Positions 12,891 to 14,215 of a stretch of DNA of 14,250 nucleotides are shown here, piece by piece. The DNA comes from a virus (Duplodnaviria; Heunggongvirae; Uroviricota; Caudoviricetes). Location of the stretch: IMG/VR virus record IMGVR_UViG_3300032046_004423, positions 95,358-109,607 of that record; one strand, written 5' to 3'. The notes beneath the pieces are model-generated. The model was not told where the DNA came from. It saw nothing but the letters and a program-made list of their open reading frames with translations, and made no database searches. Each line of letters opens with the position of its first letter. Position 1 is the stretch's first letter. A program made the translations under genes and the position numbers.

Positions 12891-12927
12891 TTCTAGTATC
12901 CTCCTATAACAAAATTTTTAATAGTAG

Positions 12928-12955
12928 AATGGGGAGTATATTTCAACTCCCCATT
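12928..12955 (-). terminator. Stem-loop after the capsid-like gene (terminator or mRNA-stabilising hairpin)
   Basis: Perfect 10-bp inverted repeat AATGGGGAGT (12928-12937) / ACTCCCCATT (12946-12955) with 8-nt loop, 12 nt past the TAA. No clean U-tract follows. Confidence 0.55.
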
Positions 12956-12967
12956 TACTGACTAGTG

Positions 12968-13133
12968 TTAACCCTGGCCTCCTATCCATGCTACTGCCCC
13001 TAATAGGATAACTGCGACGAAAACGTATGGCAGAACACCAACTAGAGCTGCTAAACCAGTAGGACTAGTAATAGCTGCAGTAGTCTGCAGGATGACCGGA
13101 ACCAGACTTACACCTACCACGATGGAAATCATG
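12968..13133 (-). CDS. Exon 2 of an intron-split small hydrophobic protein; putative spindle-shaped-virus-type major capsid protein (not in ORF track)
   Basis: C + ATG ATT TCC...GGT TAA encodes MISIVVGVSLVPVILQTTAAITSPTGLAALVGVLPYVFVAVILLGAVAWIGGQG*: two hydrophobic helices with a polar T/S/P/G linker. It begins right after the predicted intron omega-G. Confidence 0.75.
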
Positions 13134-13322
13134 CAACCTTATCCCAGGTTTTCCTGAGGGTTGGACTTTATCTTCACCCATTACTGGGTGTCCCGTGTAA
13201 AGTCTCTACACTTGCCTGTCTTTCAACTGCTAGCTCGGTATTACCATAAGTATCACTACCCTTAGGCTTCACCGACTTAGCGGGATTTATTACCTCTCAA
13301 TTACTCAAGAGGAGCACCACTT

Positions 13323-14072
13323 CTAGTATAAACCAAAGGCTTCTAGTTTTGCTAGAAACTTAGAACTATCAAGCCCAGTGTGCCTTCTAAGTCCAAGCTC
13401 ACATTCCCGAAGCACCAGGCATCTATAACCAGCCTCCCCATATAGATACATTCTGGCTACTTCCTCCAACTCATCCCTATGCCAGTAATCACCAAAAAGT
13501 TCAATGCAATCCTTTACACCGTCAGTTCTATAGAAATCAGGTACCTTTCCTGCTACTACTAGCTCACCCTCATTGAACTTCCACTTACCTGGACTTACAA
13601 AGTCTAGCAAATCCTTTAGCCAAGATTCGGGATAGTTAGGATGTAAACTACCAGCCCCAGACCTCATTGCAGCTATCTGGCTATTCTTAAACTCTGGATC
13701 TGACCACAGGTTATTATGAACCCTACTTAGCCTTTCCCTATAACCAGGCTGACTCCACATTTCCTTAGCAGTCCTGGAGAAATCCTCTGAGGACCTTGTA
13801 GATGGAACACCAAACTTCGCTTCTGAGATTGCATCTCCCCAAGTTATGTCTCTGCCTGTAAGAGCCTTAGATATAGCCTCATTTCTCTCAGCCGCAAACT
13901 CCTGCCAAGAACCCATAGACTCAAGAACGAGGTCAGAATAGATACTAGCATCTGGGAACATTGCCCGGTACTCAAGGACAGTACCTATTCCATGAGCAGA
14001 CTGTAGATGCGTACCAGTAATCTGTTCATAACTCAGACCACAAAGCCTGCACTCTACTAAGTACTTTCCCAA
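13323..14072 (-). CDS. Intron-encoded putative homing endonuclease, Vsr-like/EDxHD-type PD-(D/E)xK nuclease with N-terminal C2H2 Zn finger
   Basis: TTG start with GGGGG SD; CRLC...HLQSAH...EYRAMFP N-terminus; helical repeats (ISKALTG/ISEAKFG; WSQPGYR/WSDPEFK); C-terminal PNYPE...VPDF...IELFGDYWH...LVLRECE; lies between P1 and the ribozyme core. Confidence 0.82.
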   Translation of the reverse strand: MGKYLVECRLCGLSYEQITGTHLQSAHGIGTVLEYRAMFPDASIYSDLVLESMGSWQEFAAERNEAISKALTGRDITWGDAISEAKFGVPSTRSSEDFSRTAKEMWSQPGYRERLSRVHNNLWSDPEFKNSQIAAMRSGAGSLHPNYPESWLKDLLDFVSPGKWKFNEGELVVAGKVPDFYRTDGVKDCIELFGDYWHRDELEEVARMYLYGEAGYRCLVLRECELGLRRHTGLDSSKFLAKLEAFGLY

Positions 14073-14095
14073 CCATTCCCCCTAGATTGTAACCT

Positions 14096-14106
14096 GTAGC
14101 AGTCAT
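14096..14106 (-). other. Predicted internal guide sequence (IGS) of the intron
   Basis: Minus-strand AUGACUGCUAC is the exact 11-nt complement of the ligated exons GUAGCAGU|CAU. Confidence 0.65.
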
Positions 14107-14127
14107 TAAAAGTCGATGCCGATAAGT

Positions 14128-14141
14128 ACTGCTACTAACAC
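14128..14141 (-). CDS. Predicted exon 1 of the capsid-like gene (GTG TTA GTA GCA GT)
   Basis: GGGAGG SD 9 nt upstream of GTG; joins exon 2 in frame (GT|C = Val). The alternative junction GGC AT|C at 14116 is also in frame. Confidence 0.55.
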
Positions 14142-14159
14142 ATGCTAAAACCTCCCTTT

Positions 14160-14215
14160 AACATTACCGAGTAATATAACTAGTACTCTTCCTATGCAAC
14201 AAGTATAACATAGCA
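14160..14215 (-). promoter_or_regulatory. Candidate promoter region upstream of the capsid-like gene
   Basis: AT-rich non-coding region. Contains an extended -10-like TGTTATACT (14202-14210), a TTATAT box near 14174-14179 that could equally be an archaeal TATA box, and a short palindrome ATTAC-CGA-GTAAT (14163-14175). Confidence 0.3.

Follow-up and report, generated by a model that had tools for sequence, protein, structure and literature searches.

A compact group I intron encoding a predicted EDxHD homing endonuclease in a 63-codon gene of a virus contig

The window analyzed here, that is, the whole stretch formed by the last 14,250 nt of a 109,607-nt IMG/VR virus contig, contains on its minus strand a complete group I intron of 982 nt (14115-13134) which harbors a homing endonuclease gene of the EDxHD family. 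The stretch that the first-pass annotation had described (13134-13320) is the 3' part of this intron only, and the catalytic core makes up its 3' fifth. Taken together, the features described below make it very likely that the element is a mobile, self-splicing intron with the compact, tRNA-intron-like (IC3-type) architecture; the presence of the intron and of the endonuclease gene is real, and judging from the sequence, the intron is probably active and self-splicing. Both are known kinds of elements, found here in an interesting and unusual host gene.

The boundaries of the intron were delineated by comparison with uninterrupted homologs. A search of viral contigs with the 54-aa ORF downstream of the core as the query detected intron-less genes in L003 and L004, in which MLVAVLIGIMISIVVG is uninterrupted; in L141, L142 and L143-L145, the insertion site of the window is occupied by a homologous intron. 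The junction was placed at GGC AU|C AUG because this is the only joint that keeps the conserved protein intact, follows a U and leaves an intron that ends in G. Joining of the exons produces the sequence GGC AUC AUG and a 63-aa two-helix protein. The gene is organized as follows:

14202..14231, minus strand: putative promoter-like site upstream of exon 1 (ATGGCA, 18 nt, TG-n-TATACT, with the look of an extended -10), from a consensus scan only
14116..14141, minus strand: exon 1, 26 nt, coding for MLVAVLIG plus bases 1 and 2 of codon 9, with a GTG start at 14141-14139 and the last base U14116; from the intron-less homologs in L003 and L004
13134..14115, minus strand: complete group I intron (982 nt; first base C14115, last base G13134); from the intron-less alleles, the U before the 5' splice site, the 3' G, and the homologous introns that L141, L142 and L143-L145 carry in this position
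14106..14108, minus strand: UAA stop in the frame of exon 1, three codons past the 5' splice site, read from the sequence
13323..14072, minus strand: homing endonuclease ORF, 249 aa, with a TTG start, in the P1 loop; from profile, structure model and conserved residues
12968..13133, minus strand: exon 2, the third base of codon 9 and 54 codons (MISIVVGV...AWIGGQG; 13133-12971), with the stop at 12970-12968; from homolog comparison

This arrangement corrects the gene model: the conserved 63-aa protein is invisible to ORF callers, the 982-nt intron leaving an exon 1 of 26 nt. A Shine-Dalgarno sequence, GGGAGG (14156-14151), precedes the GTG start of exon 1, and a comparison by eye identified the near-identical CTATGTTATAAT upstream of the gene in L142. 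The early UAA within the intron would cut short the translation of unspliced RNA; an early in-frame stop is a known feature of phage and bacterial group I introns (PMC3984707). The region 12900-14250 is contained in three sequencing runs, all of them of sediment DNA, and in none of the RNA runs.

The catalytic core consists of the following elements:

13313..13320, minus strand: internal guide GUGGUGCU, directly 5' of P2, at the same position in all relatives; 3' strand of the first stem in the Rfam alignment
13312-13305/13300-13293, minus strand: P2, 8 bp, loop GUAA (13304-13301); from fold and alignment, with 8 of 8 pairs compensatory in relatives
13285-13281/13195-13191, minus strand: P3, from sequence reading and the Rfam alignment
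13275-13270/13240-13235, minus strand: P4, from sequence reading and the Rfam alignment
13266-13257/13252-13244, minus strand: P5, loop GUGA, with the motif CCUAAG...UAUGG and without P5abc, from sequence reading and the Rfam alignment
13234-13225/13220-13210, minus strand: P6, loop GAAA, from sequence reading and the Rfam alignment
13206-13201/13167-13163, minus strand: P7, G(A)GACU (13206-13201) with AGUCC (13167-13163) and a bulged A; Rfam consensus with high posterior probability
13190-13185/13180-13175, minus strand: P8, loop GUAA; covaries (model helix 9)
13174-13168, minus strand: J8/7, AAGAUAA; Rfam consensus with high posterior probability
13162-13159/13138-13135, minus strand: P9.0, AACC/GGUU, which becomes AAUC/GAUU and ACU/AGU in relatives
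13158-13153/13148-13143, minus strand: P9, loop AAAA (13152-13149); covaries in relatives
13134, minus strand: terminal G (omega G), the 3' end of the intron

The proposal that a compact group I core is present in a viral protein-coding transcript is borne out on the minus strand, where all the named helices are present. The first-pass annotation had suggested a search with group I subgroup covariance models and a covariation analysis of homologs; the search was made with the general Rfam model, and covariation was analyzed across related cores. The Rfam group I model RF00028 matches 13339-13142 (minus strand) end to end (model positions 1-253) with a score of 52.3 bits (E 4.7e-11), 2.3 bits above the gathering score of 50, and is the sole Rfam family over threshold in the window. 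The set of helices P2, P3, P4, P5, P6, P7, P8, P9 and P9.0 and the GNRA loops (GUAA in P2 and P8, GAAA in P6) were located by reading the sequence; the short P5 lacking P5abc and the absence of a P7.1/P7.2 insertion were confirmed in the sequence and the alignment, the gap between P7 and P3' (J7/3) being 4-5 nt, so that P7.1 and P7.2 are absent. The fold of the isolated strand (z = -3.8) is better than those of all 200 shuffles. A second RF00028 match in the contig (G000:C1:80085-80230, 19.7 bits) was dismissed as a chance match; it falls within a 194-aa ORF, and R1, the covariance model that we built from nine aligned cores, does not recover it.

When scored with RF00028, nine related cores, among them those of the introns at the window's site, range from 47.6 to 69.8 bits, with eight above the 52.3 bits of the window (55.9-69.8) and one at 47.6. 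R1 was searched against the related loci and 80 IMG/VR loci that a degenerate P7/J8/7 pattern had identified, and yielded 110 core matches in viral contigs. Among the 92 distinct cores, 88.5% of the cells pair, compared to 33-41% with slid partners; changes on both sides are seen in 47 of the 49 modelled pairs, and none of 500 shuffles reaches the observed values. The R1 alignment is fitted to the model and thus favors the structure, and the margin is very large. Covariation is seen in model helices 2-8, which span the 5' strand of P3 and the P4-P5-P6 domain (13210..13285). P7 and J8/7 are unchanged across the nine family cores; P7, being invariant, is uninformative with respect to covariation and is partly forced by the search pattern. 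Comparison with 50,697 records of deposited phages, by blastn for the core and tblastn for the host protein, gave no match.

In the periphery of the core, the P9 loop is AAAA, the most common L9 among the relatives being GAAA (33 of 92), and one peripheral contact may be weakened by this loop. In the Azoarcus intron, tetraloop-receptor contacts connect L9 with P5 and L2 with P8. P5 of the window intron carries the textbook 11-nt GAAA-receptor motif (CCUAAG...UAUGG), yet the only GAAA loop of the intron is in P6. Co-occurrence lends no support to an L9-P5 contact: in the 92 relatives, GAAA in L9 (33 cores) and the CCUAAG...UAUGG motif (5 cores) are not found together.

The guide GGUGCU (13318-13313) matches the 5' splice site: G13317 forms a wobble with U14116, 13316-13313 pair with A14117-G14120 in P1, and 13318-13320 can pair either with the first bases of the intron or with CAU of exon 2 (P10). 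P1 comprises only five exon pairs, and its strands are about 800 nt apart. Exons at site A, the site occupied in the window, form five contiguous pairs with site-A guides as opposed to one or two with guides from other sites; in relatives, the introns that interrupt this gene at two further sites have different guides at the same position, and there the pairing test is less discriminating. The U preceding the 5' splice site, the U-G wobble and the 3' terminal G are all present, and the junction is set independently by the intron-less alleles. The minimum-energy folds predicted for the window, L142b and L143a show a different structure around the 5' splice site:

14096..14103, minus strand: intron segment ACUGCUAC, which pairs with codons 3-5 of exon 1 (GUAGCAGU, 14135-14128), making a hairpin around the 5' splice site that is not P1

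This hairpin has 8 bp in the window, and its partners are altered in relatives (GCAGUAC/GUACUGC in L142b, GUCGCC/GGUGAC in L143); in L143, the intron partner changes together with synonymous changes in the exon. We speculate that the hairpin might shield the start region or restrain translation of the unspliced RNA.

We infer the steps of splicing from this anatomy and the textbook group I mechanism. GGCAU at the end of exon 1 would pair with the guide GUGCU (13317-13313) to form P1, in which the wobble pair of U14116 and G13317 marks the cleavage site; a free guanosine in P7 would attack after U14116; the terminal G13134, positioned by P9.0, would then occupy the same pocket; and CAU of exon 2 would pair with the guide to form P10, allowing the exons to be joined. 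The product, GGC AUC AUG, would be the mRNA for the 63-aa two-helix membrane protein. The endonuclease, in turn, would cleave the uninterrupted gene of a co-infecting relative, and repair would insert a copy of the intron; the putative target of the enzyme is the uninterrupted sequence around ATCGGCAT/CATGATTTC. Both intron-containing and intron-less alleles exist, which supports homing indirectly, the cleavage itself being predicted.

The 249-aa ORF is a homing endonuclease of the EDxHD family (I-Bth0305I type) with predicted activity. The 750-nt ORF lies in a 770-nt cassette within the P1 loop and is preceded by a Shine-Dalgarno sequence, AGGGGG (14083-14078); the protein combines an N-terminal finger (CxxC...H....H) and helical repeats with a Vsr-like (EDxHD) nuclease domain at the C-terminus. 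Searches of Pfam and NCBIfam with the endonuclease alone and a single-sequence search of the PDB returned no match. When a profile of 16 relatives was compared to the PDB, the top match was the catalytic domain of I-Bth0305I (3r3p, E 4.5e-7), followed by Vsr (1odg, 1vsr, 1cw0), and 3r3p_A was also the top Foldseek match (probability 1.00, TM 0.72 on target) of the AlphaFold2 model (pLDDT 74.5). Five residues, E149, D179, E191, H198 and E225, are invariant among the 16 relatives; two of them, D179 and H198, correspond in the alignment to the catalytic residues D196 and H213 of I-Bth0305I (mutants D196A and H213A in PMC3239194). I-Bth0305I, the EDxHD prototype, comes from the recA intron of Bacillus phage 0305phi8-36 (PMC3239194; PDB 3r3p). 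In both systems, a viral gene is interrupted by a group I intron whose multidomain endonuclease has a Vsr-like domain at its C-terminus, the catalytic residues of the two enzymes being the same and the nuclease domains 24% identical. However, the I-Bth0305I ORF interrupts P5 of an intron in recA, whereas the window ORF is located in the P1 loop of an intron in a 63-codon membrane protein gene, and its N-terminal part contains the C2H2-like finger and helical repeats and no recognized NUMOD motifs.

The three closest relatives of the endonuclease (61-72% identity) are all encoded at this very site of the gene, before a group I core. The distant relatives, from 55 viral loci, are free-standing genes; no group I match at the Rfam cut-off was found in the 40 of these loci that were searched, and the sole R1 match near them, in L046, is unrelated. 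The window ORF ends 5 nt before the guide; in contrast, the ORF in L143 (L143:1600-1680) crosses the guide and the 5' strand of P2 and stops in the P2 loop (G-UAA), and that in L142 crosses the same elements and stops just past the P2 loop (L142:1440-1475). In a comparison of L141:2071-3008 with window positions 13134-14072, the L141 core is 68% identical to the window core and 77% identical to the endonuclease-less L142a core, and the L141 endonuclease is 67% identical to that of the window, which suggests that either the endonuclease cassette or the core might have been exchanged between introns.

Given that the contig contains only one copy of this very conserved host gene, the gene must be spliced to be expressed. 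At least 159 homologs of the protein were detected in metagenomes, nearly all of 63-67 aa, with a mean column identity of 63%; I9 and M10 are invariant in the 36 aligned homologs. Six homolog clusters begin at MISIVVG and represent the exon-2 ORFs of site-A introns, and four clusters read into introns at further sites, after VLP, YVFV, GAV and AWI. Read-through tails with GNPEL and KCVET are translations of cores (catalogue proteins P0043, P0046, P0110 and P0114). Altogether, at least seven intron sites exist in this 63-codon gene across the relatives (three seen directly and four by read-through), with up to two in a single gene copy, and the introns occur with and without an endonuclease. 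L142 has two gene copies with three introns (L142:190-1980), namely an endonuclease-less one at the window's site (L142a, with a P1 loop of 18 nt), one with an endonuclease, and one before the last two codons; L143-L145 combine the window-type intron with a second one at LPYV|F (L143:800-2140). The first gene copy of L142 (L142:160-200) seemingly starts with ACG, the relatives using GTG, TTG or ATG, and either an assembly error or a rare start codon may account for this. The 63-codon gene is a compact natural system for the study of homing, intron-endonuclease exchange, and splicing versus translation near a start codon.

Two readings of the intron itself compete with that given above. The 5' splice site could lie 12 nt upstream, after GCAGU (14128/14127), with ACUGCUAC as the guide, a non-canonical U-A pair and a 59-aa product. 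Although GUAGCAGU and ACUGCUAC form a perfect 8-bp helix and the adjacent AUG could pair with CAU of exon 2, splicing at this site would remove LIGI, which is found in 36 of 36 aligned intron-less homologs (L6 and I9 are invariant), and in every relative the guide adjoins P2 on the 5' side and matches GGCAU with a U-G wobble; furthermore, a normal P1 appears in the minimum-energy fold of the endonuclease-less L142a. The upstream site is exceedingly improbable, and was rejected because LIGI would be lost against the conserved homologs. With the splice site after U14116, the core might still be recognizable in an intron that is decaying or protein-dependent, splicing poorly by itself and needing a factor or being lost. 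The marginal Rfam score (52.3 vs 50 bits), the AAAA loop of P9 where GAAA is the most common in relatives, the 800 nt between the guide and the 5' splice site, and the competing hairpin over exon 1 would all fit such an intron. Nevertheless, the catalytic elements are intact (the bulged A of P7, J8/7, omega G and the U-G wobble), the exons keep the frame and carry no mutations, the gene is the sole copy and has 63% mean column identity, and the endonuclease ORF is open and retains all catalytic residues; decay or dependence on a protein therefore appears unlikely, and an active, mobile intron is the preferred reading.

The architecture of the core fits subgroup IC3 and not IA2, as assigned by architecture and not by a subgroup-model score: P2, P9.0 and a short P9 are present, and P5abc and P7.1/P7.2 are absent. 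IC3 is exemplified by the introns of Azoarcus pre-tRNA-Ile and cyanobacterial pre-tRNA-Leu(UAA), with tRNA-Leu(UAA) being the classical host gene of this subgroup, and the classical phage group I introns mostly belong to IA. The bacterial group I subgroups comprise IA1-3, IB4, IC1, IC3 and ID (PMC3984707), and the P5(a-d) regions are absent from IC3 (PMC11835236). Outside the virus family, 39 of the 84 distinct cores are located in tRNA anticodon loops (ARAGORN), with tRNA-Leu(UAA) hosting 18 of the 39 and CUA suppressor tRNAs six. One might still regard the intron as a member of a usual phage subgroup, IA2 or IB, that merely looks compact, given that the classical phage introns are mostly IA; however, the P7-P3' gap of 4-5 nt without P7.1/P7.2, the simple hairpin of P5, and the nearest relatives, which are tRNA anticodon-loop introns including the 18 in tRNA-Leu(UAA), make this quite improbable. 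Of the two subgroups in the original "IB- or IC3-like" designation, the IC3-like one agrees with the architecture and the tRNA-intron relatives. The window intron shares with the bacterial tRNA IC3 introns the core of about 190 nt, P2, P3-P9, P9.0, a short P9 and the lack of P5abc and P7.1/P7.2 (subgroup features: PMC3984707, PMC11835236), and its closest relatives outside the family are found in viral contigs, within the anticodon loops of tRNA genes. It differs from them in that its host is a protein-coding gene, the intron residing in an mRNA and not in the anticodon loop typical of IC3, in the 750-nt endonuclease gene in the P1 loop, and in the AAAA loop of P9.

Three relatives lie in protein-coding genes (L071, L083 and L095), in each case interrupting the gene for the major head protein of a tailed phage. 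Uncultivated viruses carry this lineage in abundance, and it has invaded capsid genes on repeated occasions, as indicated by the many tRNA-borne relatives and the three head-gene introns. The earlier notion of an unusual intron lineage is accordingly overstated: a single pattern found 80 IMG/VR loci, the same lineage splits the head genes of tailed phages, and introns in capsid genes have been published (PMC7886860). Group I introns of the tRNA type (IC3-like) are frequent in uncultivated viruses and move into their capsid genes. Related introns also split CUA-anticodon suppressor tRNA genes (L136:10520-10690, L120:806-970, L097, L078, L121 and L128), and the viral contigs with split CUA tRNAs, some of them longer than 170 kb, possibly belong to phages that recode the TAG stop. 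Intron clusters were observed as well, with four introns in 4.5 kb, at least three of them in tRNA genes, in L074:1199-5726 (also in L084), and six related introns in 2 kb in the GC-rich L125:11715-13630.

The 63-aa membrane protein is probably a major virion protein, and likely the main one of an unclassified lineage of viruses of 67-120 kb. A putative capsid role is what we infer from its likeness to the His1 capsid protein, which is weak and suggestive: the protein scores 15 bits with Pfam PF25665 (His1 capsid), below the cut-off of 27, 28 of 36 family members match PF25665 below threshold (best E 9.3e-4), and hhalign aligns the protein with His1 VP21 (ORF21) over 59 columns (probability 65%, E 6e-5), values that the hydrophobic composition may inflate. 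Landthaler and Shub are said to have described, in 1999, three introns in orf142 of phage Twort. The major capsid protein genes of crAss-like phages of the Delta and Zeta groups contain several group I introns per gene (PMC7886860). The shared feature is the presence of several group I introns in one conserved late or structural virus gene; the difference is that those are large (HK97-fold) and belong to tailed phages, whereas here at least seven sites are found in 63 codons and no tailed-phage parts were found.

The few pointers to an archaeal host are the weak likeness to the His1 capsid protein and a single match in a Bathyarchaeia bin. The search for the host gene covered the 185,579 species genomes of GTDB, and the sole match was an intron-less copy in this bin (L146:664-864; CAZZFH010000015.1, a 15.4-kb contig), a strong match in one of 401 Bathyarchaeia genomes. 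ARAGORN detected no tRNA genes in the viral contig, and Pfam searches of its 20 large ORFs detected neither terminase, portal, HK97 capsid or lysin nor an archaeal or bacterial marker. A published Bathyarchaeia virus is a different, fusellovirus-like provirus (PMC10541130). It is a tentative and rather doubtful possibility that the virus is a large one (about 110 kb), lacks a tail and has a capsid of the spindle-virus type, and that the intron interrupts its major capsid gene and, if the host is archaeal, is the first group I intron, with the first EDxHD homing endonuclease, in an archaeal virus; to our knowledge, neither has been described in an archaeal virus before. Should this reading of the capsid be true, the 63-codon gene, with its at least seven sites, would be the most intron-dense viral gene known, and with an archaeal host, an IC3-type intron would be working in an archaeal cell, widening the known range of group I introns. 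The statement that archaeal group I introns occur mainly in rRNA agrees with the literature (PMC6125680), where the archaeal rRNA introns belong to subtypes IB4 and IA3 and two IC3 matches in "archaeal" records were set aside as possible phage or bacterial DNA (PMC6125680); the present intron differs in subtype and resides in a viral mRNA as opposed to rRNA, a comparison that is relevant only if the virus infects archaea. Upstream of the structural block, a Zot-type P-loop ATPase was detected as a weak match (E 9.6e-5; G000:C1:86704-87372, L154:6707-7372).
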